Positions 8,569-29,036 of a stretch of DNA of 64,000 nucleotides are shown piece after piece (within the stretch, counting starts at the first letter, position 1; each line of letters opens with the position of its first letter). Source of the stretch: an uncultured Verrucomicrobiota bacterium. GTDB lineage: Bacteria > Verrucomicrobiota > Kiritimatiellia > CAIQIC01 > Lenti-01. A program made the position numbers and the translations under genes. Where the stretch lies: the NCBI GenBank assembly GCA_937872095.1, contig CALMNW010000070.1, positions 30,542 to 94,541 of the forward strand, in the 5' to 3' direction. Below the pieces are notes generated by a model. That model searched no databases. It worked only from the letters and a program-made list of their open reading frames with translations, and was not told where the DNA came from.

Positions 8569-8585
8569 CTTCAACTTCCCGATCG

Positions 8586-12993: not shown

Positions 12994-15900
12994 ATGAAAA
13001 AGCGGATCACTAAAAGGAGCGGAGTTTTCACGGCATCGTTCCTGTTGGCATGGTCGTCTTTGCCGGCCTGGGCCGCGAACCCCGACGGCGACCTGCGCAT
13101 CGAGGTGGCGTCCGCCTACAACTTCGTGGTCGATTCCAACGTGGAGTCGCCCTCGACCTACGCGCCGCGCGCGGCGTACCTGAGCGCGACGTTCTACAAC
13201 GACGGGACGAACGCGTTGACCAACGTCTGGGCGTACATCGGCGACTACACCAACGGCACGCCGGGGACGTATCCGAGCCGCGCCCAGGCGCCGTACATCG
13301 GTCCGTTGCCGGGCGACGCCTTTGCGCTGACGCATGAAGGCGGGGCGGCGGGCGCCACGGACGCCACGCGCTATCTCGGCACGATCCTGCCGGGCGAGAG
13401 CAAGACGGTGTACTGGCTGGTGAGCTATCCGAACGTCGACGAGGACGGGAAAACAGTGACGGGCGGGATCAAGCCGGACGACGACTTGTGGCTGCAATAC
13501 GGCATCTGGGGCACCGCGCTGGATGCGGGAACGCCGCTGGAGGCCGACGTGACGCGCACGGTGACGATGCGCAACGAAATCTCGGCGATGGCCAACAAGA
13601 TCTTTCCGAACGGAGCCAACAAGGTGCCGCAGGAATACCAGGATCTCCTGGAACTTTACCAGCCGTCCTGGACGAACACGGCCGACGACGGTTCGCCGGG
13701 CACCGTGATCGCGACCGAAGGCGTCTGGTACGATTTGGGCAACGTGGGGGCGGGGTTCGACAACGACGGCGATTTGATCCCCGACCGCAACGCGTGGCTC
13801 CAGCCGGTGGGCGACGCGGCTTTGTTCGATTCTTCGTGTTTCCGGCTCGTGCACACCTACGCGCTGGTGATCGTGAAGCTGAACGACGGGACCGAGACGA
13901 TCTACAACGTCGAGGACCAGCTCTACTTCGAGAACGTCCCGGAAAACAACCGCGGGGCGGTCGGCTACGTGCGCTACGAGTTCATGGCCATGCGCGGCGG
14001 CTGTTCGAGCGCTCTGACCCCGTACCAGGAGGTGGCGTCGGGTTTCGACAACGAGAAGTTCAACGGCGATTACGGGGCCTATTTGGGCCAGGGATTGACC
14101 AGCCTGGAAGCCCACATGTCGGTCGCCAAAAGCGTGGATCATCCGTTCATCGCGCCCGGGGAAACCCTGTCCTACACCATCGCCTTCACGAATCCCGGGC
14201 CGGTGTCGGTGGGCGATCCCGATGCGAACGCCGGGCTGGTCATCCGCGAGCATATTCCCCACGGGACGCTGTACGTCGGCCTCAGCTCGACCGCCAGCAA
14301 TACCTTGCCGGGCGGCGTCGGCGCCTACACGATGCTGTATTCGACCAACAACGGCGCGACTTGGCAGGGCACCGAGCCGGCCGATCCCGCGACCGTCACC
14401 GACGTCCAGTGGTGGCTGAGCGATCCGCTCGCGACCAACGTGGCCGGATCGGTGAAAATGCAGGTGACGGTCCAGACGCCCTTTACGAACGCACCGTTCA
14501 TCACGAACCAGGCCTGCGCCACGATCGCCGGCGAGGGCGAACTCGCCTGCGGCGAGACCACCACGTACGTCTCCGGCACCAACCGGCTGGGCGATCTGGT
14601 GTGGGCGGACAACGGCGCCGGCGGAGGACTGCTGGGCAACCAGATCCAGGACGGGACCGAGCCGGGACTGTCCAACGTCACCGTCTGGCTTTTCTACGAC
14701 GCCAACACCAACGGGCTGTACGATGCCGGGGATCTGTACTACGGCTCGAACGTCACGAGCGCGTCCGGCGCCTATCTGTTCACGAATCTGCCCGACGGCA
14801 AATTCGTGGCCCGCGTGGATGCCTGGGATCCGGACCTGCCTCTCGGCTACACGCCGACGACCGCCACGAACGTCGCCGCCGACCTCGATTCCGCCCACGC
14901 GACCACGAACACGATCTCGTTCCTGGCCGCCGACTTCGGCTTCGCGCCGGCGCTGTCGCTGAAGAAAACCCTGACGAGCACCAACGCCTTCCGCGAGGGG
15001 CAGTACGTCACGTACAGCCTGGCCGTTTCCAACAACCTGCCGGGCAACGGCACCGGCGGAGGGTCGCTGGCGACCTATTACGCTTGGGCGACCAACGGAG
15101 TGACCGGAGCGGAATGGCTGTCGTCTACGAACGCCTACGTTCCGCCGGGGCCGGACGGGCTGTACGCTTCCAACAACTTCAAGGCGGCCTCGAAGACCTT
15201 TGTTCTGGACCGGTTCCCGCTGGGCGCGCAGCCGGGCGGCATCAGCAACGTGTCGGTGGTGATGCCCATCGTGGTCGTGCCGCTCCTGCTCAATCCCGAC
15301 ACGTTCGACGTGCACGTCGACCAGCTGTCGCCGGCGCAGCGGATCTTCACGGGCAATTACATGGCCACGAATCTGGTCACCGGCACCATGACCATTCCCA
15401 TGACGGGCACCTTCGCCTGGGCGTGGGCCGACTTCGCCACGAACTACACGGTGACGCTGACCTGCGCGAAAGGCGGCGGGGTGGGCGGCTCGATCTGGCT
15501 GCTGCTGGACGCGGTGGGGTTCAAGATCCAGAGCACCGCGACGACCGGGGTGGGCAGCGCGACCACGACGCTGAAGCCGGTGCCGCTGACGGACTGCTAC
15601 GACGCGGACCAGTTCCAGTTCGTCGGCGCGGTTCCGCCGCAAACCGGCAGCTTGACCAACGGCACGGCGCCGAACGCGACGGGCACCTTGTACTGGGCCG
15701 ACCTGGGGCCGATCTATCCGGGCGGGACCTCGACGGTGGCGGTGACTTTCAAGTTGCTGAAACCGACCGGCAACACGAACAGCGTCGTGACGAACGTCGC
15801 GTGGGCGACGAACGCGCTGTTCCTCGGCGGCAAGCCCGCCAACAACGCCACCAGCCTCGTGGTCAGTACGCAGCTTCCGGCGGCGACGGTGGGCGACTAC

Positions 15901-18900
15901 GTCTGGCGCGACCTGAACGCCGACGGCGTCCAGAACGAAACGAACATGGGCATCTCGGGCGTGGCCGTTTCCCTCACGCCACCGGCCACCATCGATCTGG
16001 GGAACGGTCTGGGCGCGGCGATCACGAACTGGACGGATGCCTCGGGCTACTATCTGTTCGAATCGATCCCGGCGACGGGCGTCTACACGGTGCGGGTGGT
16101 GACGGCCACGCTGCCGGGCGGGTCCGGGACCAACACCTTCGACGAAGACGGGGTGCGGGACAACGCGCACGCCGTCTATCTGGACATCTATTCCGCGCCC
16201 GCCAGCACCAACAACGTGCACTTGACGACGGACTTCGGCTACCAGACGGGCACGACCATCGAAGGCACGATCTGGCACGACGTCGACCACGGCATGGAGA
16301 CGAACCGCGAGGCGGGCGAGGACTGGCTGACGAACGTGACGGTCTATCTGTGCGCGAGTCCCTCGCCCTGCGGTCCGGGCGCGTCGCTGGCAACGAACGT
16401 CGCGACCACGAACGGCTACTTCCGCTTCGTCGGCAGCTACACGGGCACCTACACCGTGATGGTGGCGACCAACACGGGCATGCTGTCGACAGGCACGTGG
16501 AACCTGTCGTGGGACACGGACGGGACCAACACGGCGAACTATTCCTCCGTGACGGTGGTGAGCGGCGGCGTGGCGCGCGCGGACTTCAGCTATTGGCGGA
16601 CGGGACCCTACGCGATCGGCGACACGCTGTTCTACGACTGGGACGGCAACGGGACGCAGACGGCCACCAACGAGGAGGGCATCGCCAACGTCACGGTCTA
16701 CCTCTACGAGGACGCCAACGGCAATGGCGTGGTGGACGTCGCGACGGATGCGCTGGCCGGCATCACGGTCACGGCGACGAACGGCTATTATTCCTTCACC
16801 AACCTGTTCGCGACGAACACCTACCTGGTCGTCGTGGACCGGAACGATCCGGACCTGCCGCCGCTCTACAACGTCACCGCGGATCCCTGGGGGGCGAAGG
16901 ACGGGCGCAGCGTGGTCACGATCACCAACGCCAACGACTTCGCGCAGGACTTCGGCTTCCAGCCCTACGGCACCGGCGCCATCGGCGACACGGTCTGGCG
17001 GGACCTGAACGCGGACGGCCTCCAGTCCGGCGTGCAGGAAACCGGCATCGCGAACGTCCTGGTCAGCCTCTACGCGGACCTGAACGGCGACGGCACGTAC
17101 GTGCTGCTGAAGACCACGAACACCGGTTCGTCGGGCACCTACCTGTTCGGCTCGCTGCCGGACGGGAATTACCGGGTGGTGGTGGATGCGGCCGACGCCG
17201 CCCTGCCGCAGGACGCCTTCGGCAACGTCTACTATGCCAGCACGGCCACCTCGCACGACGTGACGATCAGCGGCGGCAGCACTTATCTGGACGCCGATTT
17301 CGGCTTCGCGCCCTACGCCGCGATCGGCGACACGATCTTCTGGGACGCCAACCGCAACGGCACGCAGGACTACTCCGAAGAGGGCGTCTCCGGCGTGGTG
17401 GTCCGGCTGTATGTCGACGCCAACGCCAACGGATTCTATGACGCCGGCGAAACGCTGGCCGCCAGCCGGACCACGGACGTCAACGGGCTGTATCTGTTCG
17501 CCGGGCTGGCACCAAGCAACTACGTGGTTGTGGTGGACGGGGCCAGCGGTCCGCTGGCGGGGGCGTTCCTTTCCGCCGATCCGGATTCCAACGGACTGCC
17601 CTGCGAAGATCTCGACGTGCCGCAGCCGTGCGACGGCGAACACGGCCGGTCTCTGGTCAACGGCCAAAACTACATGGGCGCCGACTTCGGCTATATTCCG
17701 CCCGGCGCGGTCATCGGCGACACGCTGTGGATCGATACGGACGACGACGGCGTCCGCGACGACAACGAGAGCGGCATCGCCTACGTGTCCGTGGTGCTTT
17801 GGTCCAACGGCGTCGCGATCGCCACGAACGAGACCGACGGCGACGGGTGGTATTACTTCAGCAACCTCGGCGACGGTACTTTCCAAGTATCCGTCGTCGG
17901 CAGCGATCCGGACTTCCCGCCGGGCTTGACCCAGACCTACGATCCCGACGGCAATCTCGACGGCGTCGGCACCAATATCGTGGTGTCCGGCGGCGCGGTG
18001 ACGTCCGTCGGGGGCGTGCCCTGCACGGACTGCGACTTCTCGATCGATTTCGGCTACCGCTACGCGGGCAACAACAGCCTGAGCGGCACGATCGGCTTCG
18101 ATGCGACGCCCTACGACGGCGTGCTGAACGGCACGAACTGGAACGGCGTGGCGGCCGACGAGGTGGCCTACGCGAACGTCCAGGTCTATCTCTATCTCTG
18201 GAACGACGACGGCGACGGCATCGTCGAGGCCGGCGAATACGTCCAGGTGTCCACGACGACCACGTCCACCAACGGCGATTATGCGTTCACGGGCCTGCCC
18301 AACGGCGACGGCGACGACCAATACGTCGTGGCCAGCCTCGCGCCGGAAGACTACCTGAAACTCACTACCACCAATGGGTCCATCGCCGGGGTGGGGGTGG
18401 TCGAGACCGCGAACGCGCAGGGCAACACGGTGTCGGCCTATCTGACGGTCGCCATCGCGCCGGAAATCAACGGCATGGATTTCGCCTATCGCTCGACCAA
18501 GGTGTACGATTACGGCGACCTGCCCCAAAGCTACCAGACGGAGTTTCCCGGCGGCGCGCGGCACATGGTGACCTACCTGACGAACCTCTATCTCGGCGCC
18601 GCGGTCGACGTCGAACTCAACGGCGTGCCCTCGTCGCTGGCGGACGGCGACGACCTCGCCGGCGGGGACGACGAGGACGGCGTGGACCTGATCGGCCGCT
18701 GGGCGCCGGGGGTGGACGGCGGCACCGTGGAGGTGACGGTGGGCAAGGGCACCGGCTGGCTGCTGGGCTTCATCGATTTCAACGGCGACGGCGATTTCAA
18801 CGACGCCGGAGACTTGGCCGTGAACCAAGCCGTGGCCACCAATGGCGGTCCGGGCCTCGACGGCGTCTACGAGATCCCGCTGGCCGTTCCGGCGGGCAGC

Positions 18901-21900
18901 CTGAGCACGACGAACAGCACCGTGCTCTACGCGCGGTTCCGCCTGTTCCCCAGCGCGCCGTTCCTGCCGCAACTGGCCTATTCCGGCACGGCGGACAACG
19001 GCGAGGTCGAGGACTACCGCTGGATTCTGCACGTCATCGGCGGAACCGTTTTCGCGGATGCCGACGCGGATTCCCTCTTCTCCGGCGGCGACACGATCAT
19101 CCCGGGCACGGTCGTGCATCTCTACGACGGCCTGGGCGCCCTGATCGAATCGACGGTGACGGACCTTTCCGGAAACTACGCGTTCGTCGGCCTGCCGGAC
19201 GGGAACTACCGCGTCGAGATGGAGACGCCGGCCGGCACCGCCGCCATCCTCGACCGGGATGGCAACGGCAACGGCGCGACGAACATCGCGGTGACCGTGG
19301 CGGGCGACAGCGTGTTCACGCGGGATTTCCTGGTGGACAACGGCGCGTCCTTGGCTGCGATCAGCGGCACGGTGTTCGAGGACGACGGCTACGGCGTCGT
19401 GGGCGACGGCGCCTTCAACGCGCCCGACCGGCCCGTGCCCGGCACGACCGTTTCGCTCTACCGCGACATCGACGGCGACGGCGTGGCCGATCTGAACGAG
19501 TGGATGGCCGACGTCGTCGCGGACGTCGGCGGCGCCTACGCCTTCGCCAACCTGCCGCCCGGCGATTACCTCGTCGTCATGACCACGCCCGCCGGCGCCA
19601 CCAGCATCACCGACGTGGATGGCAACGGCAACGGTTCCGCGCTGATCGAAGTGCCGCTGGCCGGCGTGGACGTGACCGACCGGGATTTCCTGGTGGACGG
19701 CGCGCCGCCGGCCGCCCTGAGCGGTCTGATTTGGTTCGACGCCAACGACAACGGCATCCGCGCGGGATCGGAAACCAACCGGTTCGCGAACATTCCGGTC
19801 TATCTGCTCGACGTCGATTCCAACGTCGTGGCGGCGGTCACGACCGGCGTGAGCGGCGCGTATGCCTTCACCAATCTGGCGCCCGCGAACTATTTCGTGC
19901 GTTTCGATTTGGCGGCGCTCAGCACCAACGACTATCGCATCGCCTCGCCCTACCAGGGGACCAACACCACCCTCGACAGCGATGTGATCCAGGGACAGGT
20001 GGGCGACAACGCCCAAACCGCCGTGCTGCTGCTGAGCGTCGGCCAAAACCAGGAAAACGTCGACTTGGGCTTGACGCCGCCGCCGCCGACCTGGGCCGCC
20101 GTGGCCGATGTCTGGGGCGAATGGACGGAGGGCGAGGGCCGAGTGGTTTGGCACACGAGTTCCGAATTCGGCACGGCCGGCTTCTTCGTCTATCGCGTCG
20201 ATCCGGAGACGGGGGCGGAAACGCGCCTGAACGACGTGCTGGTGCCGTCGGCATTCGAACCGTCCGGTTCCATCTATTGGCTCGCGGATCCGGACGCCGC
20301 GGAAGGCGGCGACGGGACCTACCGGCTGGAAGAAGTGGAACTGTCGGGCCAAGTCATCGACGTCGGCATGCAGGAAATCCGCTTCGCCGCGCCGCCGCCG
20401 GCGGCGAAGGCGGCCCGGGCGGAAATCCGGGCGGCCAAGGCCGTCGCGCCGGTCACGTACGCCGCGGCCAAACTGGCTGGCCCATCGAGCGTGCTCAAGG
20501 TGTCGTTCCGGGACGAAGGCATCTACGGGATCGGCCTGCAAGCCATCGCCGACGGCATGGGCCTGGCGTTGGCGGACGTGCAGGCGCTGGCCGCAGCGGA
20601 TGGACTGCGAATTTCGGCCCAAGGCGCGGCGGTCCCGGCAATCTACGACGCGGCGCGCGCGCGGCTGGTCTTCTGCGGCCAGGCGACGGACAACTGGTAT
20701 GCGCGCGACAACGCCTGCCTGATTTCGCAGGCTTCCGGCGCGGCGATGCCCCGGCGCGAGCCGGGCGCTTCGTCGGGCGGCACGGTTTTTCCGGTGCAGG
20801 TTCGTTTCGAGCAGGACCGCTATCCGTTCGACAGCGCGCTGATCAAGCCCGACGACTTCTATTACTGGGACTACGTGATCAGCGGCACGAATGCCGCCTC
20901 GCTGCGCAGTTTCCCGCTGGATTTGGCCGGCCGCACCGGCAACGTGGTCCTGAAGATCCGGCTGATGGGCTGGTCGAGCACGACCAACGATCCGGACCAT
21001 CTGGCGGAAATCCGCTTCAACGGAACGACGGTGGGATCGGTCGCCTTCGACGGGCAAGACGCGGTCGAAGCCGAGGTGACGATTCCGTTGGCCGCGGTCT
21101 CGAACGGCGCGAACGTGGTGGCGGTGAAAGGCGTGTTGCCCGAAGGCCGCAGCCACAGCTACTTCGTGGTGGATTGGATCGAAGCGTCCTTTGAACGCGA
21201 TCTGGCGCCGATGAACGGGACGGCGGACTTCCGCGCGGGCACCGCCGCGGCCGTATCCGCCGCGGCGTTCGCCGCGCCGCTGGCCATGGCGTTGGACGCG
21301 GCCGGGAATCCGACGTGGATCGCCGACGAGACCGGAACGCTCCCCGCCAAGGCGTGGGCCGTGGCTGCCGAGAACGAACGTTTCGCGGTCGCGGAAGCGG
21401 ATGGCATTCCGCTGCTTGCGCCCGAGCCGGTCAATGCCGCCCCGTGGTTCCTGGCGGCAACCAACCGGATCGACTATCTGGTCGTCGCTTCGCGCGCGCT
21501 GGCCGCCGCGGCGCAGGAATTGGCGGATTATCGCGCGAGCCAGGGGTTGCGCGTGGGCGTGGCGACGTTCGAGGACGTCTGCGATTGGATGGCGGCCGGC
21601 CTGTATACGCCCGAAGCGATTCCGGCCTTGCTTTCGTACGCCGCCGGCACGTGGGCGGAAGCGCCTTGGATGGTGGTGCTGGCGGGCAACGGGCACTACG
21701 ACTATCTCGGCGCGCTGAGCAACGAGGTCAACCACGTCCCGCCCATGATGCTGCAAACGCTGGATGGACTTTTCGCCTCCGACGGACTGCTGGCGGACCT
21801 CGACGGCGACGAGCTGCCCGATGTTGCCATCGGCCGCCTGCCCGCGCTGACCGCCGCGGATCTCGCCGCCATGATCGCCAAGATCAAGGCCAGCGAACTC

Positions 21901-22956
21901 GGTTTCGGGGAAACCTGGCAGAACCAGATCGTGTTGTCCGCCGACAAGGCCGATCCCGAGGCCGGCGATTTCCGGGCATCCAACCAGCAGCTGGCCCTGC
22001 AGGCGGACGCGACGCATCCGGTGGCGCAGCAGATCGATCTGGATTCCATGGCGATCGCCGCGGCGCGCAGCGCCGTCTCGAATTGGTTCCGAAACGGAGC
22101 CGGATTCATCCATTACACCGGCCACGGCAATGCCACCGCGATCGGTTCCCTGAGCACGAAATTGCTGGCGGCGGCGGACGTCGGTCGGATGGCCAACGCG
22201 ACGCGGCCCCCCGCTTTCGTGGCGCTGAGCTGTCTGGTCGGCCGGTTCGAGGCGCCGGGGGTGCAGAGCCTCAGCGAACTCCTGCTGCGGCGCGCCGGCG
22301 GCGGGGCCGTGGCGGTCTGGAGCGCGTCGGGCATGTCCCGCAATGCGCCGGCCACGGAAATGGCCGAGGCGTTCTATCGTGCCGTGGTGCAGGATGGCGC
22401 CGGCACCTGGGGACTCGCGATTCTCCGCGCCCGCCGCTCGCTGGCCAGCACTTGGGCGACCAAGGACACCTTCGCCGTCTACAATCTGTTCGGCGATCCG
22501 GCGCTGCGGATGGCCGGCAACGTGGGCGCGTCCGCCGCCGCCGCGACTTTTGCCCAATGGCGCTGGGAACGTTTTGCGCCGGCCGATTTGGCCGACGCGG
22601 CCACAAGCGGAGCCACGGACGCCAATTTCGCCGAATATGCGCTCGGCGGAAACGATCAGGTCTTGGCCGAACTGCCGGAATTCGGATTCCCGTTGCCGGC
22701 GCTCGACGGCGTGGCGACCCGCGCGGAAAGCGCTGCCGGCGTCGTGCTGCGCTGGAAACGGCGCATCCAGCGCGCAGACATCCAGTATTTGTTGTTTATT
22801 TCGGAAAATCTGGAAGAATGGGAAACGGATCCGGACGATGTCCAAACGGTGGGCGTCGAACCGGATGCCGACGGCATCATGGAAACCGTGCGCACGCGGG
22901 TGAACCGCCCGTGGGCGGAACGGGTGTATATCGGCGTGAAAGCGAAACGGAAATAG
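12994..22956 (+). CDS. Giant (3320 aa) secreted surface protein with a signal peptide, DUF11-like and many SdrD-B-like/Cna-B-type Ca-binding beta-sandwich repeats (GDxVWxDLNADGxQ), and a C-terminal peptidase C25 (gingipain-like) domain
   Basis: The signal peptide reads MKKRITKRSGVFTASFLLAWSSLPAWA. There are more than 15 repeats of the IGDTxWxDxNxNGxQD motif. The C-terminal region has a His (IHYTGHGN) and a Cys (VALSCLVGRFE) in the arrangement of the C25 catalytic dyad. A fully open antisense ORF on the opposite strand was rejected. Confidence 0.9.
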   Translation: MKKRITKRSGVFTASFLLAWSSLPAWAANPDGDLRIEVASAYNFVVDSNVESPSTYAPRAAYLSATFYNDGTNALTNVWAYIGDYTNGTPGTYPSRAQAPYIGPLPGDAFALTHEGGAAGATDATRYLGTILPGESKTVYWLVSYPNVDEDGKTVTGGIKPDDDLWLQYGIWGTALDAGTPLEADVTRTVTMRNEISAMANKIFPNGANKVPQEYQDLLELYQPSWTNTADDGSPGTVIATEGVWYDLGNVGAGFDNDGDLIPDRNAWLQPVGDAALFDSSCFRLVHTYALVIVKLNDGTETIYNVEDQLYFENVPENNRGAVGYVRYEFMAMRGGCSSALTPYQEVASGFDNEKFNGDYGAYLGQGLTSLEAHMSVAKSVDHPFIAPGETLSYTIAFTNPGPVSVGDPDANAGLVIREHIPHGTLYVGLSSTASNTLPGGVGAYTMLYSTNNGATWQGTEPADPATVTDVQWWLSDPLATNVAGSVKMQVTVQTPFTNAPFITNQACATIAGEGELACGETTTYVSGTNRLGDLVWADNGAGGGLLGNQIQDGTEPGLSNVTVWLFYDANTNGLYDAGDLYYGSNVTSASGAYLFTNLPDGKFVARVDAWDPDLPLGYTPTTATNVAADLDSAHATTNTISFLAADFGFAPALSLKKTLTSTNAFREGQYVTYSLAVSNNLPGNGTGGGSLATYYAWATNGVTGAEWLSSTNAYVPPGPDGLYASNNFKAASKTFVLDRFPLGAQPGGISNVSVVMPIVVVPLLLNPDTFDVHVDQLSPAQRIFTGNYMATNLVTGTMTIPMTGTFAWAWADFATNYTVTLTCAKGGGVGGSIWLLLDAVGFKIQSTATTGVGSATTTLKPVPLTDCYDADQFQFVGAVPPQTGSLTNGTAPNATGTLYWADLGPIYPGGTSTVAVTFKLLKPTGNTNSVVTNVAWATNALFLGGKPANNATSLVVSTQLPAATVGDYVWRDLNADGVQNETNMGISGVAVSLTPPATIDLGNGLGAAITNWTDASGYYLFESIPATGVYTVRVVTATLPGGSGTNTFDEDGVRDNAHAVYLDIYSAPASTNNVHLTTDFGYQTGTTIEGTIWHDVDHGMETNREAGEDWLTNVTVYLCASPSPCGPGASLATNVATTNGYFRFVGSYTGTYTVMVATNTGMLSTGTWNLSWDTDGTNTANYSSVTVVSGGVARADFSYWRTGPYAIGDTLFYDWDGNGTQTATNEEGIANVTVYLYEDANGNGVVDVATDALAGITVTATNGYYSFTNLFATNTYLVVVDRNDPDLPPLYNVTADPWGAKDGRSVVTITNANDFAQDFGFQPYGTGAIGDTVWRDLNADGLQSGVQETGIANVLVSLYADLNGDGTYVLLKTTNTGSSGTYLFGSLPDGNYRVVVDAADAALPQDAFGNVYYASTATSHDVTISGGSTYLDADFGFAPYAAIGDTIFWDANRNGTQDYSEEGVSGVVVRLYVDANANGFYDAGETLAASRTTDVNGLYLFAGLAPSNYVVVVDGASGPLAGAFLSADPDSNGLPCEDLDVPQPCDGEHGRSLVNGQNYMGADFGYIPPGAVIGDTLWIDTDDDGVRDDNESGIAYVSVVLWSNGVAIATNETDGDGWYYFSNLGDGTFQVSVVGSDPDFPPGLTQTYDPDGNLDGVGTNIVVSGGAVTSVGGVPCTDCDFSIDFGYRYAGNNSLSGTIGFDATPYDGVLNGTNWNGVAADEVAYANVQVYLYLWNDDGDGIVEAGEYVQVSTTTTSTNGDYAFTGLPNGDGDDQYVVASLAPEDYLKLTTTNGSIAGVGVVETANAQGNTVSAYLTVAIAPEINGMDFAYRSTKVYDYGDLPQSYQTEFPGGARHMVTYLTNLYLGAAVDVELNGVPSSLADGDDLAGGDDEDGVDLIGRWAPGVDGGTVEVTVGKGTGWLLGFIDFNGDGDFNDAGDLAVNQAVATNGGPGLDGVYEIPLAVPAGSLSTTNSTVLYARFRLFPSAPFLPQLAYSGTADNGEVEDYRWILHVIGGTVFADADADSLFSGGDTIIPGTVVHLYDGLGALIESTVTDLSGNYAFVGLPDGNYRVEMETPAGTAAILDRDGNGNGATNIAVTVAGDSVFTRDFLVDNGASLAAISGTVFEDDGYGVVGDGAFNAPDRPVPGTTVSLYRDIDGDGVADLNEWMADVVADVGGAYAFANLPPGDYLVVMTTPAGATSITDVDGNGNGSALIEVPLAGVDVTDRDFLVDGAPPAALSGLIWFDANDNGIRAGSETNRFANIPVYLLDVDSNVVAAVTTGVSGAYAFTNLAPANYFVRFDLAALSTNDYRIASPYQGTNTTLDSDVIQGQVGDNAQTAVLLLSVGQNQENVDLGLTPPPPTWAAVADVWGEWTEGEGRVVWHTSSEFGTAGFFVYRVDPETGAETRLNDVLVPSAFEPSGSIYWLADPDAAEGGDGTYRLEEVELSGQVIDVGMQEIRFAAPPPAAKAARAEIRAAKAVAPVTYAAAKLAGPSSVLKVSFRDEGIYGIGLQAIADGMGLALADVQALAAADGLRISAQGAAVPAIYDAARARLVFCGQATDNWYARDNACLISQASGAAMPRREPGASSGGTVFPVQVRFEQDRYPFDSALIKPDDFYYWDYVISGTNAASLRSFPLDLAGRTGNVVLKIRLMGWSSTTNDPDHLAEIRFNGTTVGSVAFDGQDAVEAEVTIPLAAVSNGANVVAVKGVLPEGRSHSYFVVDWIEASFERDLAPMNGTADFRAGTAAAVSAAAFAAPLAMALDAAGNPTWIADETGTLPAKAWAVAAENERFAVAEADGIPLLAPEPVNAAPWFLAATNRIDYLVVASRALAAAAQELADYRASQGLRVGVATFEDVCDWMAAGLYTPEAIPALLSYAAGTWAEAPWMVVLAGNGHYDYLGALSNEVNHVPPMMLQTLDGLFASDGLLADLDGDELPDVAIGRLPALTAADLAAMIAKIKASELGFGETWQNQIVLSADKADPEAGDFRASNQQLALQADATHPVAQQIDLDSMAIAAARSAVSNWFRNGAGFIHYTGHGNATAIGSLSTKLLAAADVGRMANATRPPAFVALSCLVGRFEAPGVQSLSELLLRRAGGGAVAVWSASGMSRNAPATEMAEAFYRAVVQDGAGTWGLAILRARRSLASTWATKDTFAVYNLFGDPALRMAGNVGASAAAATFAQWRWERFAPADLADAATSGATDANFAEYALGGNDQVLAELPEFGFPLPALDGVATRAESAAGVVLRWKRRIQRADIQYLLFISENLEEWETDPDDVQTVGVEPDADGIMETVRTRVNRPWAERVYIGVKAKRK

Positions 22957-22958
22957 CG

Positions 22959-23255
22959 GTGGTTCGGAACGCTTCAGGGACCTATCGGATAAACGGCAAG
23001 GTGGTTCTGCGCCGGATCGGCGAAGACCGCCTGCTGGTGCCGGTGGCGGGCGCCGTCGCGCGCGAATGCTGCGTGTTTCCGGTCAACGAAACGGGCGAAT
23101 TCATCTGGACGCGGCTGGCGCGGGGCGAACCGCTCGGCGCGATCGCGGCGGCGCTGGAAGCGGAGTTCGCCGTGGCGCCGGAAGCGGCCTTGGCCGATTG
23201 CCGCGAATTCGCGGAGAAACTCGTGGCCCAGCGGTTGCTGGAGGTGGCGGGGTGA
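22959..23255 (+). CDS. PqqD-family protein (RiPP recognition element-type peptide chaperone)
   Basis: The 98-aa product (YRINGKVVLRRIGEDRLLVPVAG...VFPVNETGEFIWTRLARGEPLGAIAAALEAEFAV...ADCREFAEKLVAQRLL) matches the PqqD architecture. The GTG start lies 2 nt after the giant gene's stop. Confidence 0.8.
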   Translation: MVRNASGTYRINGKVVLRRIGEDRLLVPVAGAVARECCVFPVNETGEFIWTRLARGEPLGAIAAALEAEFAVAPEAALADCREFAEKLVAQRLLEVAG

Positions 23256-24343
23256 CTCGCGCCGTCCAAGCCGCGACCGGGGAGTGGACTGCGGGATTTC
23301 GTGCGCGCGCCGCCCGGTCTCGCTTGCCCGTTTCCGCCACGCTGGAACTGACGCGGCGCTGCAATCTGCGCTGCCTCCACTGCTATCTGGGCGACCAGGC
23401 GGACCACCTGCGCGACGAGGACCGCGAGCTCGCGACCGCCGCCGTGCGCGCGGCGATTTCCGACTGGGTCGAAGCGGGCTGTCTGTATCTGACGATCACC
23501 GGCGGCGAGCCGTTGCTGCGGCCCGATTTCGCCGAAATCTATCGCCATGCGCGCAATTTGGGCCTGGTCGTGACGGTGTTTTCCAACGGAACGCTGGTGA
23601 CGGCCGGGATCGCGGAGTTGTTCCGCGAGTGGCCGCCGCGCAAGGTGGAAATCAGCCTCTGCGGCGCGACGGCGGAAACCCACGACGCGATCGCCGGCGT
23701 GCCGGGCGCGCACGCGCGGACTTGGGCGGGGATCCGCCGCCTGCAGGCCGCCGGCGTGCGCCTCGCGCTGAAAACGGTGTTGCTGAAGCGCAATCTCGGC
23801 GAATTGCCAGAAATGGAACGCCAGGCCGCCGAAATCGGCGCGGCCTTCCGCCACGACGCGGCGATTTTTCCCTGCCTGGACGGCGGCTCGCGCGCGCCGC
23901 TGGCGCTGCGCGTTTCGCCGGCAGAGGCCGTGCGGGCGGACATGGCCACCGCGGCCCGCCGCGCCATGTGGCGAGCCAAGATCGAGCAGACCGCGGGCGC
24001 TCCCGCCGACGACCGGCTGTACGCCTGCGCCGCGGGCCGGTCCGCGTTCTGCGCCGACCCGTTCGGCGGACTTGCACCGTGCCTGCTGGCGGAAAATTAC
24101 CGGTGCGAACCCGCCGGCCGCCCGTTCCGGGAAATCTGGAACGGCGAACTGGCCGCCATCCAGGGCCGGAAGCGTTCGCGGAACGACGTCGTTTTCGCCG
24201 GCGAGATGCGCGGCGCCTGCGCGCATTGTCCGGCGTTCAACCGGATCGAAACCGGCCATGAAGAAATGGAATCGGATTACGTGAAAAAGAGCACTTGGTT
24301 GCGCTACGGCGCGGCGATGGAGGATGCAGATGAAGCCCAATGA
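23252..24343 (+). CDS. Radical SAM enzyme with a C-terminal SPASM/twitch Cys-rich domain (peptide-modifying maturase, PqqE-like class)
   Basis: It has the CNLRCLHC CxxxCxxC motif, a GGEPLL motif, and a C-terminal CAAGRSAFCADPFGGLAPC...C...CAHCP cluster. The GTG start overlaps the PqqD stop (GTGA). Confidence 0.85.
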   Translation: MTRAVQAATGEWTAGFRARAARSRLPVSATLELTRRCNLRCLHCYLGDQADHLRDEDRELATAAVRAAISDWVEAGCLYLTITGGEPLLRPDFAEIYRHARNLGLVVTVFSNGTLVTAGIAELFREWPPRKVEISLCGATAETHDAIAGVPGAHARTWAGIRRLQAAGVRLALKTVLLKRNLGELPEMERQAAEIGAAFRHDAAIFPCLDGGSRAPLALRVSPAEAVRADMATAARRAMWRAKIEQTAGAPADDRLYACAAGRSAFCADPFGGLAPCLLAENYRCEPAGRPFREIWNGELAAIQGRKRSRNDVVFAGEMRGACAHCPAFNRIETGHEEMESDYVKKSTWLRYGAAMEDADEAQ

Positions 24344-24515
24344 TGAAAACCGTTCGCCTGCGGGCTTGGATCTGACCGTGCGCCGTCCGTACGAAAAACC
24401 CGACATCGAACGCGTGGATCTGGCGTTGGCCGAGACGCTGTCGCAGGGCTGCAAACTGGAGTCCGACAGCGGTTGCGTCGGCCCGCCGATCACGGCGTAC
24501 GAGGGAGGATCTTGA
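24330..24515 (+). CDS. Candidate RiPP precursor peptide (61 aa; alternative ATG at 24324)
   Basis: A GGAGG Shine-Dalgarno at 24317-24321 sits 8 nt before the ATG, inside the 3' end of the rSAM gene. The product MKPNDENRSPAGLDLTVRRPYEKPDIERVDLALAETLSQGCKLESDSGCVGPPITAYEGGS has a leader segment (KPDIERVDLALAETL) that resembles the PqqA leader motif (KPAFIDLRLGLEVTL) bound by PqqD, and its core contains C-x7-C. Confidence 0.5.
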   Translation: MKPNDENRSPAGLDLTVRRPYEKPDIERVDLALAETLSQGCKLESDSGCVGPPITAYEGGS

Positions 24516-25414
24516 GGAACGTCGGCCATCTAGACGTCGGTCCGCTGCGTTTCGCGCTGCGGACCGCGGAGCTTGGCGCGGTGCGATATTCCGATCCGGC
24601 CTACGGCGGGTTTTTCTCCGCGGCGGGGCCGGGGGAGCCCTTGGCCCAATTGCCGGTGGATCTGGTGCGCGGCGTGCCGCCGCCGCCGGCCGGCGCGCCG
24701 TTGTGGCGGGCGGGGGACCACTGGGCCGTTTGGGAAGACGGCGCCGATTTGCTTTTTCACGTCGGCTTGCGGGCGCCGGAAACCGCGCGGCTGGCCTGCC
24801 GCGTCGCGCGCGATTTGACGCGCGCGGAATTGGCGCGCTCTTCCGCGGAGCGCGAGGATGGCATTTGCGAAGCGCCCTTGCGGTATCCGCTGGACCAGAT
24901 CCTGTCGTGGGGATTGCTGGCGCAGATCGGCGGAACGTTGCTGCACGCGGCCGTGGCGGTGAAGGACGGCGTCGGGCGCGTTTTCACGGGGCGCAGCGGC
25001 GCGGGCAAGTCCACCATCTCGGGTCTGCTGCACGCCGCCGGCTGGCGGATCCTGAACGACGATCGCGTCGTCGTGTTCCGGCGCGGCGGCGAATGGCGCG
25101 TGGCCGGCACGCCGTGGCACGGTTCGGGTCGCTTCGCCGAAGCGGCGGAAGTTCCGCTCGCCGGCATCCATTTTCTGCAGAAAGCGGCGGAGTGCCGCCG
25201 GGAGTCCATGTCGGCGTCGCAAATTCGGTTGGCGTTGCTGGACGTGGCGGCGGTGCCGTGGTTCGAAGAGACCTGGGCGCAGGGAACGCTCGATGGGCTG
25301 GAGCGGCTGACGCGCGAAGTCGAGATCGCGCGGTTTCATTTCCCGAAAACCCCGGCGGCGGTCCGGGAACTGGCCGGGATTCAGGAATTCCGCGGGGCAG
25401 GAGCCTGCGCATGA
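24512..25414 (+). CDS. HprK-related kinase (HPr kinase C-terminal domain-like P-loop protein)
   Basis: GRSGAGKST is followed by LNDDRVVV, matching the HprK P-loop/ADD pattern. The start is uncertain; a TTG at 24512 overlaps the peptide stop (TTGA) and follows GGGAGG. An antisense ORF was rejected. Confidence 0.65.
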   Translation: MRNVGHLDVGPLRFALRTAELGAVRYSDPAYGGFFSAAGPGEPLAQLPVDLVRGVPPPPAGAPLWRAGDHWAVWEDGADLLFHVGLRAPETARLACRVARDLTRAELARSSAEREDGICEAPLRYPLDQILSWGLLAQIGGTLLHAAVAVKDGVGRVFTGRSGAGKSTISGLLHAAGWRILNDDRVVVFRRGGEWRVAGTPWHGSGRFAEAAEVPLAGIHFLQKAAECRRESMSASQIRLALLDVAAVPWFEETWAQGTLDGLERLTREVEIARFHFPKTPAAVRELAGIQEFRGAGACA

Positions 25415-25833
25415 AACGCCTGGCGGAAATGGATCAACATGCGGCGCAACGGGCGCAGGGCAAAACGCAAGAGGCCGGTCCAACGGGCGCGACGGGTGTC
25501 CAAGAGCCGGATCTTCCCGTTTTGACAAGAACTTGCGGCGACGCCGATCACGTCGGATTTGGGGATCCAGTCGCCGCCCTTCACGGCGGCATCGCCGACG
25601 GCAAAAACGCGATTTGTTCGTTTTTCGTTAATTGTGCATCGGTGCAAGACAAGCCGGCCGTTAATTTGATAAAGTATAACGCTTCCACGGTGGATCGTGC
25701 CGACATCCAGCGGTTGGATGAGAACGCCGTCTCCGTCGCGGATGGTCGGATGCATGCTGGGCCCTTGAGCGTGAAAGGTGACGGGCGTGCGCTGCTGGAG
25801 CAGCGCGGCGAGGATGGTTTGGATATCGCGCAT
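25381..25833 (-). CDS. S24/S26-family serine peptidase (signal-peptidase-I/LexA-like), a candidate leader peptidase
   Basis: The 150-aa product has the GPSMHPTI nucleophile motif (GxSMxPT). Its 3' end overlaps the HprK-like gene by 34 nt (convergent). The plus-strand frame over this region has no recognisable domains and was rejected. Confidence 0.65.
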   Translation of the reverse strand: MRDIQTILAALLQQRTPVTFHAQGPSMHPTIRDGDGVLIQPLDVGTIHRGSVILYQINGRLVLHRCTINEKRTNRVFAVGDAAVKGGDWIPKSDVIGVAASSCQNGKIRLLDTRRARWTGLLRFALRPLRRMLIHFRQAFHAQAPAPRNS

Positions 25834-25872: not shown

Positions 25873-27756
25873 ATGAGCAACACAAGCATCGTTTTTCGGG
25901 CGGGGCGGCTGGCGCTGGCGGGCTGCCTGCTGTCCTGGACGGCGCAGGCGGCCAAGCCTACGGGCGAGGCGATCGTGGCCGCGATGACCGGCCGCGCCCA
26001 AGCGCGCGTGTTCACCGCGCCCGTCCACGAAGGGCGCACGGAGCTGATGGATTTGTTCGAGGGGGCTTCCGTCGGCGAGAACGTCCGCGTGATCACCGGT
26101 AAGGATGGCCGCCTGTGCCTGGTGTGTTCGCCGGGCGCGATCCTGTGCGTCGCGCCGAACACCGAATTCGTCATCGATCAATTGCGCCACACGGCGGACG
26201 GCTTGCCGGAGAGCGAAGACGATTTGATCCGCCGCATCCACGTGCGCCTGCTCAAAGGCCGCCTGCGCGTGCAGGCGGGAACGCCCCTGCCGACGCTGGA
26301 TCTGCGGATCGATACGTCGGCCGGCCGGGTCGAAGCCCACGGGGGGGCGTTCGTGGTCGCGCAAGGCGAACAAGATCGCTGGCACGTCGCCTGCGAAGCG
26401 CACGAATTGGCGGTCGTTCCCCGCAACGGCAGCCGCACGGAACTGAAGGCGAACCAAGCCGCCTGGCTGGCGGCCGACGGCGAAGAGCGCGGCGCCTTCC
26501 GCTGGGAAGACATCGGCGAAAACCCGGAACTCTACCAGTTCGAGCTGTGCAACGCCTTTTTCGCGGATCTGGAGCCCTTCATCCATCACGAGCGGCCGTT
26601 CGACCGGGAAGGGCTCGGGCAATATATCGGCGCGACCGCGCCGTTCCTCGATCTGGATGCCGGCGCGCTGGTGACGGATGCCAGCCCCACGATCCGGCCG
26701 GCGGTGGCGGCCGTTCGGCCCGCCGCCTTGCCCCGGCCCGGAGAAGGGGCGCCGGGCGGACGTTGGGATGAAATCCGCATCTGGAAGTGGTTCGACGATC
26801 TCGGCACGGTGAAAGGGGTGAACTATATCCCCCGCACGGCCGTTAATTCGGTCGAGATGTGGATGGAAGACACTTTCGACCCCGATACGATCGACGAAGA
26901 ACTGGGCTGGGCGCGGGACGTCGGCTACACCGGCATCCGCGTCCAACTTCAATTCGCGGTATGGCAGGACGATCCCGACGGATTTCTCGACCGGGTGGAT
27001 CGGCTGCTCGAGATCGCGGCGAAACACGGGTTGCGCGTGGTGCCGGTGCTGTTCGACGACCTGAATCGGGCGGGCCAGGCCCCGCACGTCGGTCCGCAGC
27101 CCGAACCGCTTCCCGGCGAACACAACGCCCGGTGGGTGCCCAGTCCCGGCGCCGCTGCGGTGAAGGATCGCGGCCAGTGGCCCGCGCTGGAAAAATACGT
27201 CAAGGACGTGATGGGGAAATTCAAGCGCGACCGGCGCGTCCTGTACTGGGATCTCTACAACGTGGTCGGCAACGGCGGGCTGGGGGAGGAGTCGCTGCCG
27301 CTGCTGGATCAGACGTTCAACTGGGCGCGTGCCGTCGAACCGTCGCAGCCGCTGGCCGTGCCGGCCTGGCGGGAATTCGGCGGCGCGATGACCGCCCGCG
27401 GACTTGAGCGATCGGACCTGATCACCTTCCAGAGCTTCGACGACGCCGAGAGCGTCGCGGCGCGCCTCCAGTTGCTGCAGCGCTACCAGCGCCCCATCAT
27501 CTGTTCCGATTGGCTGATGCGCCAAACGGGCAACGACTTCGAAAACGTGCTGCCGCTGTTTTCCACCTATCGCGCCGGTTGGTTCAACCAAGGGCTGGTC
27601 AGCGGCAAGACCCACCGGCCCATCCAGGAAGCCGCCTATCGGACGGACAAAGATCCCGACCTCTGGCAGCAAGACGTGTTGCATCCGGATGGAACCCCGT
27701 ACGACCACAAGGAAGTGGAGCTGATCCAGGGCTTCCGCTATCTCGAAGCCCCTTGA
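25873..27756 (+). CDS. Secreted protein with an N-terminal FecR-like domain and a C-terminal glycoside-hydrolase-like TIM-barrel domain
   Basis: A signal peptide (MSNTSIVFRAGRLALAGCLLSWTAQA) begins at the ATG at 25873. A FecR-like segment (VRVITGKDGRLCLVCSPGAILCVAPNTEF) follows. The C-terminal half (GVNYIPRTAVNSVEMW...GIRVQLQF...KHGLRVVPVLFDD) is GH-like. The longer plus-strand ORF from 24703 was truncated to this start. Confidence 0.7.
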   Translation: MSNTSIVFRAGRLALAGCLLSWTAQAAKPTGEAIVAAMTGRAQARVFTAPVHEGRTELMDLFEGASVGENVRVITGKDGRLCLVCSPGAILCVAPNTEFVIDQLRHTADGLPESEDDLIRRIHVRLLKGRLRVQAGTPLPTLDLRIDTSAGRVEAHGGAFVVAQGEQDRWHVACEAHELAVVPRNGSRTELKANQAAWLAADGEERGAFRWEDIGENPELYQFELCNAFFADLEPFIHHERPFDREGLGQYIGATAPFLDLDAGALVTDASPTIRPAVAAVRPAALPRPGEGAPGGRWDEIRIWKWFDDLGTVKGVNYIPRTAVNSVEMWMEDTFDPDTIDEELGWARDVGYTGIRVQLQFAVWQDDPDGFLDRVDRLLEIAAKHGLRVVPVLFDDLNRAGQAPHVGPQPEPLPGEHNARWVPSPGAAAVKDRGQWPALEKYVKDVMGKFKRDRRVLYWDLYNVVGNGGLGEESLPLLDQTFNWARAVEPSQPLAVPAWREFGGAMTARGLERSDLITFQSFDDAESVAARLQLLQRYQRPIICSDWLMRQTGNDFENVLPLFSTYRAGWFNQGLVSGKTHRPIQEAAYRTDKDPDLWQQDVLHPDGTPYDHKEVELIQGFRYLEAP

Positions 27757-29036
27757 TGAAACGGATCGCCGCCATCTGGTTTGCCCTGGCGGGTGCCGTA
27801 TTCGCGGCACCCACCCTCGGCATGGCCGCGGACGACGGCTATGCCGCCGGTTTCTATACCCGCGGCGTCGATGCGGCGTCCTATATCGACCAAGGCGGCG
27901 CCGTCGTCGATCCGTTCTACGTGCCCGCCAAGACCGGGGCGTTGCTGCCGCGCGTCAGTCTGGCGATCGCGCGCGACGACAACGTCTTTCTCGACGCGAC
28001 CAACCAGACGGTCGGAACCACCATTTCGCTGGCGCCGGGTTTGCTGGCCATCTGGGGTCGGCCGGCGGACAACCACGTCTACGCCGATTACGGCCTCATC
28101 CTGCCCCTTTACGAGAGCGAAGAAGGATTGAACGACCAACCGAGCCATTTGCTGCGGCTGGGCAGCGTCTACCGCACGGGCAAGAGCCAGATCCAGGGGC
28201 AGGTGGGTTTTCGCCGCCTGGAAGACGTCGATACGGTGGTGGGCGCGCGCGTGGCCAAACGGGATCTTTCCGCCGATCTGGGCGTGGAACATCGGATTTC
28301 GGGCAAGTCCAGCTTGGGCCTGCAGGGCCGGGCGGAAATGCACGAATTCGATGCGGAGAACTACCTCGACTACAACCGCTACTACGGGGCCGGCCGGCTG
28401 TATCACCGCGTGTCGCCCAAGAGCCAGATGTTCGTCCAGGGCGGCCTGGGACGCGACGATCCGCGCCAGCCGGAAGATCGCGCCGCCGCCGCCGATTTCT
28501 ACGATCTGTCGCTGGGCGTTCGCGGGAAGCAGTCGCCCAAGTTCAACGCCGCCGGCCGGGTGGGCTACATGTGGCGCCGCTACGACGAAGAATCGCGCGA
28601 CGACTACGCCCATTGGATCGCCTCGCTGAAAGCCGAGAGCGCGCCGTTCGGCCTCGCGACCTTCACGGGCGAATTGTATGCGGATATCCGGCCCGCCGTC
28701 GATGCGGACGCCGTCGACGTGGTGGATCAAGGCGTCGTTTTCGGCGCGAACCGGCGGCTGTTCAGCGAGCGCTTGCGCGGCAATGCCTCGGCCACGTTCG
28801 GCCAAATCGACTATTCCGGCGGCGCCGTCCCGGAGGGCGGCGGACTGGACGGGCGGACGGATCGCTATTGGGGATTTTCCGTCGGCGTGGATTGGTGGAG
28901 CAAAGAGCGCTTTTCCGTCGGCGTGGCGTATTCCTACATGCGTCGCGACGGCGACGTGGAAGGTTCAGCGGAAACGCGGGATTCGACCTCGTACGAACAG
29001 GGACGCTGGACCTTGCGCGCCAGCTGGAACTATTGA
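27756..29036 (+). CDS. Outer-membrane beta-barrel protein (EPS-associated)
   Basis: It has a signal peptide (MKRIAAIWFALAGAVFAAPTLGMAADD), alternating amphipathic strands and a C-terminal aromatic residue (SWNY). It overlaps the upstream stop as ATGA. Confidence 0.7.
   Translation: MKRIAAIWFALAGAVFAAPTLGMAADDGYAAGFYTRGVDAASYIDQGGAVVDPFYVPAKTGALLPRVSLAIARDDNVFLDATNQTVGTTISLAPGLLAIWGRPADNHVYADYGLILPLYESEEGLNDQPSHLLRLGSVYRTGKSQIQGQVGFRRLEDVDTVVGARVAKRDLSADLGVEHRISGKSSLGLQGRAEMHEFDAENYLDYNRYYGAGRLYHRVSPKSQMFVQGGLGRDDPRQPEDRAAAADFYDLSLGVRGKQSPKFNAAGRVGYMWRRYDEESRDDYAHWIASLKAESAPFGLATFTGELYADIRPAVDADAVDVVDQGVVFGANRRLFSERLRGNASATFGQIDYSGGAVPEGGGLDGRTDRYWGFSVGVDWWSKERFSVGVAYSYMRRDGDVEGSAETRDSTSYEQGRWTLRASWNY

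Follow-up and report, generated by a model that had tools for sequence, protein, structure and literature searches.

A widespread, uncharacterised RiPP-like cassette, its newly recognised precursor family and a predicted C-terminal phosphoserine

Results

A five-gene cassette in a Verrucomicrobiota contig

We examined a 64,000-nucleotide stretch of the uncultured Verrucomicrobiota contig CALMNW010000070.1, hereafter called the window, in which five consecutive genes encode a PqqD-family chaperone, a radical-SAM enzyme, a 61-residue peptide, an HprK-like P-loop protein of the ScmC family and an S26B-like peptidase (Table 1). These genes form an uncharacterised and widespread cassette that resembles the pathways of peptides that ribosomes synthesise and that are modified after translation (RiPPs); its precursor family is newly recognised, and a phosphoserine is predicted. 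In an earlier interpretation made from the letters alone, hereafter the sequence-only reading, they had been described as a compact peptide-maturation module. Our own reading of the window places the five genes at the same coordinates, and the junctions described for them are all there. The PqqD stop and the radical-SAM start overlap in GTGA, the start of the peptide gene and its Shine-Dalgarno sequence lie within the 3' end of the radical-SAM gene, the peptide stop and the ScmC start share TTGA, and the ScmC and peptidase genes overlap tail to tail over 34 nt (25381-25414). Among the homologous loci compared with the window, which carry L numbers, L004 and L005 have the same 34-nt overlap in called-gene coordinates (10873-10906). 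The peptidase gene of L001-L003 has its end at the equivalent position (10879-10912 in L001), where only a 67-aa fragment of it is called. The GC content around the cassette is about 0.66-0.69.

Table 1. Genes of the cassette and of its surroundings in the window
Feature	Position	Strand	Remarks
PqqD-family peptide chaperone (RiPP recognition element, RRE), 98 aa	22959..23255	+	GTG start, TGA stop
Radical-SAM enzyme, 363 aa	23252..24343	+	GTG start
Precursor peptide, 61 aa	24330..24515	+	ATG start, stop 24513-24515
ScmC-family HprK-like P-loop protein, 300 aa, predicted peptide Ser kinase	24512..25414	+	TTG start
Soluble S26B-like peptidase, 150 aa, predicted leader peptidase	25833..25381	-	convergent with ScmC
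Giant secreted protein, 3320 aa, gingipain-type Peptidase_C25 domain C-terminal	12994..22956	+	open reading frame (ORF) and PF01364
FecR-domain protein	25873-27756	+	Pfam; conserved downstream neighbour
Beta-barrel outer-membrane protein	27756-29036	+	conserved downstream neighbour
Wza-like exporter	29093-30106	+	Pfam; conserved downstream neighbour
Wzc-like co-polymerase/kinase	30126-32273	+	Pfam; conserved downstream neighbour
NTP_transf_5 nucleotidyltransferase, 363 aa	55655..56746	-	PF14907, 92 bits

The cassette is conserved across phyla

The window cassette proved to be widespread, being conserved across phyla in Kiritimatiellia-like metagenome-assembled genomes (MAGs), Nitrospira, Acidobacteriota and Gammaproteobacteria. 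In L001-L008, which come from MAGs labelled Kiritimatiellia, Lentisphaerae or 'Verrucomicrobia', the order is giant C25 gene, PqqD, radical-SAM, peptide, ScmC and convergent S26-like peptidase, followed downstream by genes for a FecR-domain protein, an outer-membrane barrel, Wza, Wzc, Wzy_C and ABC-2/Wzt. The Nitrospira MAG locus L009 has genes for C25, PqqD, the radical-SAM enzyme, a GGS-ended peptide and ScmC, plus a peptidase gene that is co-directional here. In Acidobacteriota and Gammaproteobacteria the order is S26-like, ScmC, PqqD, radical-SAM/SPASM and peptide. Some related metagenome loci have two or three radical-SAM genes. Three of them accompany ScmC, S26-like and NTP_transf_5 genes in L045 (10001-15250) and L049 (6713-15693), the latter with two PqqD genes, and these two loci resemble the multi-radical-SAM SynChlorMet layout more closely.

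In order to count associations, 80 metagenome loci were retrieved by radical-SAM similarity alone and scored with hidden Markov models (HMMs) built in this analysis; the 27 of them flanked by 2.5 kb or more on each side were then used, and neighbours were sought within 10 kb. ScmC and PqqD genes each accompanied the radical-SAM gene in 26 of these 27 loci, so that the co-occurrence left to be checked by the sequence-only reading was indeed found, and an S26-like gene was present in 22. NTP_transf_5 genes lay within the same distance in 13 loci and C25 genes in 6. A scan of a genome collection with the ScmC alignment was dominated by the generic P-loop pattern; at least 17 loci were confirmed in it.

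The precursor peptide family

The peptide (MKPNDENRSPAGLDLTVRRPYEKPDIERVDLALAETLSQGCKLESDSGCVGPPITAYEGGS, 61 aa) starts at ATG 24330, 6 nt after the Shine-Dalgarno sequence GGAGGA (24318-24323). The first in-frame ATG, at 24324, would give 63 aa; database homologues are mostly 61 aa long. We found about 98 homologous protein clusters. Among 33 aligned sequences, 14 residues are invariant (Y21, P24, R28-A32, E35, T36, S38, C41, K42, G60 and S61) and residues 1-17 are freely variable. Moreover, 18 synonymous and 5 non-synonymous codon differences separate residues 18-61 of the window peptide from their L001 counterparts. The homologous clusters, the invariant residues and the synonymous excess rule out a spurious small ORF; judged by this comparison, the ORF is a genuine gene under purifying selection. 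The role of precursor given to it before is upheld, and the ORF is conserved in syntenic loci.

The peptide contains a leader motif, YxxPxI, at Y21-I26 (Y21-E-K-P24-D-I26), in which Y21 and P24 are the invariant positions, followed by an ETLS junction, C41, C49 and the terminal Ser61. It ends in EGGS, shows neither E-x3-Y nor a C-terminal GVY, and has no match in NCBIfam or Pfam. Two or three cysteines are present in each of the precursors seen, and the first of them follows the motif Tyr at a roughly constant distance, by a median of 18 residues (20 in the window peptide). The same architecture is found in Nitrospira, Acidobacteriota and Gammaproteobacteria, with cores that differ widely between clades; acidobacterial and gammaproteobacterial precursors follow the patterns (R/K)(R/K)PYxxPxI..EPLEAMAxxCS..C.xGPISS or ..YETLALACGK..C..RRS.

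A C-terminal Ser is present in 33 of 33 aligned close homologues. Among the unique HMM-detected peptides, from loci chosen by radical-SAM similarity only, 29 of 31 carry a terminal Ser, and the remaining two have Thr and Gly there. In about one third of the loci the peptide candidates came from a regular expression demanding a Ser or Thr end, and these are outside the latter count. We rejected the idea that the terminal Ser is strictly universal, as three minor clades have other ends: the candidate precursors of L038/L040/L042, L051/L094 and L098 end in ...CP, ...QP, ...CPPCE/K or ...ICCN.

The recognition element and the radical-SAM enzyme

In a Pfam scan, the PqqD protein matched PF05402 at 47.5 bits, well over the cut-off of 23.4, which supports its assignment as a recognition element. 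Its exact sequence is present in the protein collection, and its best NCBIfam match, below cut-off, is the lasso PqqD chaperone. The same scan gave 77 bits for PF04055 on the radical-SAM enzyme, in which the CX3CX2C motif (C37/C41/C44) is invariant. The radical-SAM part of the former radical-SAM/SPASM assignment is upheld. The SPASM part is degenerate. An alignment with ten relatives showed that the window-clade enzyme retains CX12GX4C and one CxxC only, and that C259, C277 and C326 are invariant. The seven-cysteine SPASM pattern, which accounts for two auxiliary clusters, was not found in the window enzyme; the CxxCx5C(xxC) cysteines of the second cluster are absent from the window clade and still present in L011 and L016. 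According to these cysteine losses, the C-terminal domain is SPASM-derived and apparently keeps one auxiliary-cluster site ('twitch-like'). The best NCBIfam matches of the enzyme are AhbD, MftC and NirJ, each far under cut-off. Indeed, no component of the cassette reaches a curated NCBIfam cut-off, and the same holds for the distant acidobacterial version.

ScmC carries the catalytic motif of lasso-peptide kinases

The ScmC reading of the window is identical to the 300-aa database entry P0001, whose precomputed Pfam annotation, like that of all listed homologues, is PF27840 'ScmC'; a local Pfam scan of the window protein gave no PF27840 match. The AlphaFold2 model (AF2; predicted local distance difference test, pLDDT, 92) had the HprK/P and PEPCK folds as best Foldseek matches in the PDB, and a profile search of the PDB aligned L. 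casei HprK/P at the His, the P-loop and the DDRV sequence. The catalytic motif H145, G160, G163, G165, K166, S167, D183 and D184 is invariant. In the lasso kinase BsfK, mutagenesis shows that H148, G163, G166, G168, K169, S170, D186 and D187 matter, and the RRE of that system speeds up phosphorylation (PMC10368454). The window protein has these eight residues at identical spacing. In lasso pathways, HPr-kinase homologues act on the linear precursor and phosphorylate its C-terminal Ser, and in pseudomycoidin hexoses are added by a nucleotidyltransferase (PMC8498205). This Ser is the target of most characterised lasso-peptide kinases. The ScmC family is large: among 50%-identity clusters, 608 representatives fall within E <= 1e-30 and 6135 within E <= 1e-10, and the sub-branch of the window protein has about 15.

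The state of the motif follows the end of the peptide. All 53 full-length ScmC proteins encoded beside Ser-ended peptides, a set that includes those found with the Ser/Thr regular expression, retain H-G-G-G-K-[ST]-D-[DE]. The six encoded beside peptides whose last residue is P, E, K or N, in about three independent lineages, all deviate from it. The deviant motifs, in L038, L040 and L042, in L051 and L094 and in L098, read HAGGKSED, HGGGKSED, HGKGKSDE, HGEGKSDE and HAEGKTDE. From the sequences, kinase function may have been changed or lost in these clades.

Given the BsfK-like motif, the near-universal Ser end, the precedent of the lasso kinases and the correlation between motif and Ser, we infer by analogy that ScmC phosphorylates Ser61 of the peptide. 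The HprK-like protein had been proposed as either a tailoring or a regulatory step. Since it probably acts on the invariant C-terminal Ser, the tailoring role is retained and the regulatory one is not. In the opposite scenario, ScmC would be an ATP-binding scaffold or a regulator, for instance of polysaccharide synthesis, as HprK is in carbon metabolism, and would not be a peptide kinase; the terminal Ser would then be kept for some other reason, such as recognition by the radical-SAM enzyme. MftC-like radical-SAM enzymes do work on peptide C-termini, ScmC persists where peptides end without Ser, and scores against HprK-type models are low (PF07475, Hpr_kinase_C, 19.4 bits for a cut-off of 33.3; TIGR00679, 17.7 for 240). 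Taken with its explanation of the Ser, this scenario nevertheless seems quite doubtful to us: ScmC has, at identical spacing, all eight residues used for catalysis by proven lasso kinases, it goes with radical-SAM and PqqD in 26 of 27 loci irrespective of polysaccharide genes nearby, and deviation from the motif tracks the loss of the terminal Ser.

A soluble S26-like peptidase

The last gene had been read as an S24/S26 leader protease. Its product has the S26 catalytic arrangement, that is, the Ser of a GxSMxP motif with a His/Lys base: Ser26 (GPSMHP), His64 (LHR) and Asp81 (GD) align with the motifs of SEC11C, in a phmmer match that is itself weak and non-significant (E = 0.24). This S26B-like set stands; the membership in curated families does not, and inspection of the sequence revealed neither a hydrophobic N-terminal segment nor a membrane anchor. 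All of 15 homologues share the His, with either Ser or Cys as nucleophile, which argues for a working peptidase. Cys (GDCMAP) replaces the Ser of GxSMxP in L013, L014, L024 and L025, where the S26-like gene lies upstream of ScmC. Because the gene is nearly always part of the cassette and its His is invariant, the protein is probably the leader peptidase. The conserved ETLS (or ETLALA, EAMA) before the first Cys would offer the small residues favoured by signal peptidases.

A C25 protein as recurrent partner

The gene upstream of the cassette encodes a giant protein with a signal-peptide-like N-terminus. The residues translated from 20002-22953 match PF01364 (Peptidase_C25) at 230 bits; a phmmer search of this region against PDB sequences returned nothing at E <= 0.01. 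Its stop lies 2 nt before the PqqD start. A cassette-adjacent C25 gene was found in L001-L009, L014, L025, L026, L028-L035, L038, L040, L042 and L095, which places it beside the cassette in four phylum-level lineages. Among loci with the window gene order that extend far enough, C25 is directly upstream in L001-L009, L030, L031, L033 and L034, and the sole exception is L044, where the upstream sequence spans 2.9 kb. The C25 gene is downstream of the cassette in L035 and within it in L038, L040 and L042; the L040 protein has 1014 aa, its N-terminus carrying a membrane or signal segment. L025 has no conserved neighbour other than C25, polysaccharide genes being absent around it. A module of five genes next to a giant surface protease had been described: the C25 gene does adjoin, and as a conserved partner it makes the unit bigger than five genes. 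The C25 protein could process an exported peptide or, by analogy with PorU, could be a sortase-like transpeptidase.

One may ask whether C25 and polysaccharide genes are near the cassette through genomic hitch-hiking only, the product being a diffusible RiPP with antimicrobial or signalling action. The cassette's enzymes are a set typical for RiPP natural-product clusters, and the divergence of the core from clade to clade resembles that of antibiotic RiPPs, but the core is strongly conserved in the window's clade, with its 14 invariant residues, and exporter and immunity genes are absent from the cassette and from its conserved flanks. As to C25, only 6 of the 27 sampled loci have it and many acidobacterial loci are without it; yet it recurs in the four lineages, even inside the cassette (L040), and stands alone as conserved neighbour in L025. 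We therefore regard a diffusible antimicrobial or signal as unlikely.

The surrounding genes

Downstream of the cassette, the FecR, barrel, Wza and Wzc genes open a polysaccharide operon of about 30 kb, and a weak EpsL similarity was noted among these conserved neighbour proteins. The operon continues co-directionally from 32270 to 55648 (+), with frequent 4-nt start/stop overlaps. It encodes Wzy_C, ABC-2/Wzt, a STELLO-like protein, at least seven glycosyltransferases, a methyltransferase, a WecA/MraY-type initiating transferase (50073-51968) and GDSL-like and sulfatase-like proteins; the NTP_transf_5 gene (55655-56746) is its convergent end. On the other side, just upstream of the C25 gene, lie genes for a thioredoxin-like protein (11671-12468, -) and a sensor histidine kinase with SBP_bac_3, several PAS, HisKA and HATPase_c domains (8766-11588, -). 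In L001, a 928-aa protein with SBP_bac_3 and PAS domains is encoded between the C25 gene and PqqD. Two very large genes with coding-type third-position GC content (GC3) occupy 824-3895 (-) and 3892-8574 (-), for 1023 and 1560 aa. At the far end of the window, 62541-64000 (+) holds an apparent RpiB-SHMT fusion ORF that continues past the window end, with LacAB_rpiB at residues 3-142 and serine hydroxymethyltransferase at residues 156-484. A promoter/terminator scan gave 8 terminator-like sites for 13.8 expected.

Discussion

A proposed maturation pathway

From these sequence comparisons, we consider it likely that the cassette is a ribosomal-peptide maturation unit acting on the 61-aa precursor through cross-linking, phosphorylation of Ser61 and leader removal. 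In the proposed scheme, PqqD would bind the leader segment RRPYEKPDI and hand the peptide over to the partner enzymes. The radical-SAM enzyme, with its one surviving auxiliary-cluster site, would install a cross-link, most likely on Cys41 and/or Cys49; since each precursor seen carries two or three cysteines, a thioether type would be the most likely one. ScmC would phosphorylate Ser61, the soluble S26-like peptidase would cut the leader off near ETLS/QGCK, and an NTP_transf_5 enzyme may add a sugar or a nucleotide to the phosphate. The product probably works in concert with the co-encoded C25 surface protein, the polysaccharide or both, at the cell envelope.

Several observations weigh against this scheme. 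The SPASM model PF13186 gave only 13.4 bits on the radical-SAM enzyme for a cut-off of 21.5, and the NCBIfam scan showed no specific affinity of this enzyme to known thioether synthases. The peptidase stayed below cut-off for both Peptidase_S24 (PF00717, 22.7 bits for 23.3) and the archaeal-type signal peptidase I (TIGR02228, 36.1 for 51.85). The peptides found with the Ser/Thr regular expression, left out of the 29/31 count, are inside the 53-protein ScmC set, and the six motif-deviating loci represent only about three independent lineages. ScmC is retained in clades without Ser-ended peptides, and therefore the link between kinase and Ser is not universal. Finally, there is no dedicated peptide exporter near the cassette, and in the window the NTP_transf_5 gene is 30 kb away from it.

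The recurrence of C25 could also be taken further. PorU, a C25-family sortase of the type IX secretion system, joins protein C-termini to a seryl/glycyl amine on a linking sugar (PMC7468200). By analogy, the peptide could be a ribosomally made tether of the giant adhesin/protease to the cell-surface glycan, with no free natural product: the new N-terminal amine created by leader removal would accept a PorU-like C25 transpeptidation, and the phosphoserine would be joined to polysaccharide or to a lipid carrier through NTP_transf_5 and the glycosyltransferases. The window has in common with PorU a gingipain-family C25 domain associated with cell-surface glycan genes, but here the domain is within a giant adhesin-like protein and a transpeptidase role is speculative; components of the type IX system and CTD signals were not seen, no search aimed at them having been made. 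We hold such a tether, with its two chemical steps taken jointly, to be very unlikely.

If the maturation scheme is correct, the cassette represents a large, phylogenetically broad and so far unstudied family of modified peptides. It would combine radical-SAM cross-linking, HprK-type phosphorylation of a C-terminal Ser and leader removal by a soluble signal-peptidase-like enzyme, three steps not reported jointly in the literature searched. That literature contained no description of a system of PqqD, radical-SAM and HprK-like proteins, PMC4289311 being concerned with lasso clusters only. The recurrent pairing with C25 and polysaccharide genes hints at a role at the cell surface over antibiosis, and a role of that kind would be unusual for a RiPP.

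Comparison with known systems

The cassette shares with the PQQ and mycofactocin operons a PqqD gene followed by a gene for a radical-SAM/SPASM-type enzyme, with a short peptide gene adjacent. A peptide-derived redox cofactor would fit this order, the lack of an exporter and a core conserved within the clade, and the best NCBIfam matches, weak as they are, include MftC and PqqE. However, every PQQ and mycofactocin equivalog remains far under cut-off (PqqE 85.4 bits for 381, PqqD 17.4 for 46, MftC 110.3 for 265), and the pqqB/C and mftD-F families were found neither among the scanned window genes nor in the precomputed Pfam lists of homologous loci, where PqqF was likewise missing from those inspected. 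The peptide lacks the E-x3-Y and GVY motifs, its cores are not conserved between clades, and the linked genes do not include a dependent dehydrogenase. A PQQ or mycofactocin operon is ruled out by the equivalog scores, the missing partner families and the missing peptide motifs, as the sequence-only reading had concluded, and a redox cofactor of a similar kind is highly improbable.

The reduced auxiliary domain of the window enzyme has a parallel among sactipeptide and ranthipeptide synthases (AlbA, SkfB, PapB/CteB), as SkfB itself has a reduced ('twitch') one. These systems also resemble the cassette in their radical-SAM enzyme with an auxiliary Fe-S domain, their Cys-containing leader peptide and their RRE-type recognition. 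The window enzyme scores far under cut-off against them (StsB 81, AlbA 72 and SkfB 65 bits), and the cassette differs in its separate PqqD RRE, its additional kinase and S26-like peptidase, and its thioether, which is a prediction.

SynChlorMet (SCM; ScmC/D/E/F), known from computational curation only, likewise associates an HprK-like protein of the ScmC family with PqqD and radical-SAM/SPASM proteins. It has two radical-SAM genes and the window cassette one, and the window proteins fail its equivalog cut-offs (ScmC 29.2 bits for 125, ScmD 18.4 for 100, ScmE 74.8 for 400, ScmF 92.6 for 400). For the window-type cassette, the precursor family has been identified, as have an S26-like peptidase and C25 partners, and this computationally defined ScmC/SynChlorMet family would thus gain a substrate family.

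There are close parallels with the lasso clusters that contain a kinase, such as those of paeninodin (PadeK), pseudomycoidin and Bradymonas BsfK, classified in NCBIfam as 'HPr-rel-A system'. These have an HprK-like kinase with the identical H/G/G/G/K/S/D/D residues, a discrete PqqD RRE, a YxxPxL leader motif and a Ser-ended precursor, and NTP_transf_5 often accompanies them, as it does window-type cassettes (PMC8498205). YxxPxL is the lasso leader motif bound by the PqqD-type B1 protein (PMC10368454). Could the window then hold a lasso cluster? The YxxPxI motif, a PqqD whose best match is a lasso chaperone, the HprK-like kinase and the C-terminal Ser would agree with this, as would Thr36, which lies exactly 15 residues past Tyr21 like the lasso pair Tyr(-17)/Thr(-2). 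But neither a cyclase nor a B2 protease is present in the window or in homologous loci: tblastn of the L023 cyclase against the 64 kb gave a best E of 0.15, and no match was obtained there for the B2 transglutaminase-like leader protease. Moreover, the Thr spacing is lost in other clades, and the would-be ring residues Glu44 and Asp46 are not invariant. A lasso-peptide cluster is accordingly next to impossible. Thr(-2) was also tried as a general lasso-like ruler and rejected, as it is valid for the window's clade only.

In Bacillus rhizoplanae (L023, 6188-13930), two peptide systems are neighbours. The first, a lasso cluster resembling that of paeninodin, has a 41-aa Ser-ended precursor, kinase, B1, B2 and nucleotidyltransferase; the second is a trio of ScmC-like, PqqD and S26-like genes, which lies directly upstream of the lasso cyclase. 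At 6188-6538, an ORF on the minus strand contains SYTRPMV, with a Thr 15 residues beyond the Tyr.

Compared with the kinase lasso clusters, the window cassette has a radical-SAM enzyme and an S26-like peptidase instead of the cyclase and B2, and its ScmC scores 35.5 bits against HprK_rel_A, whose cut-off is 200. If the proposed maturation pathway holds, the lasso sub-module of recognition element and kinase, with or without the nucleotidyltransferase, would have been reused here with a different class-defining enzyme.

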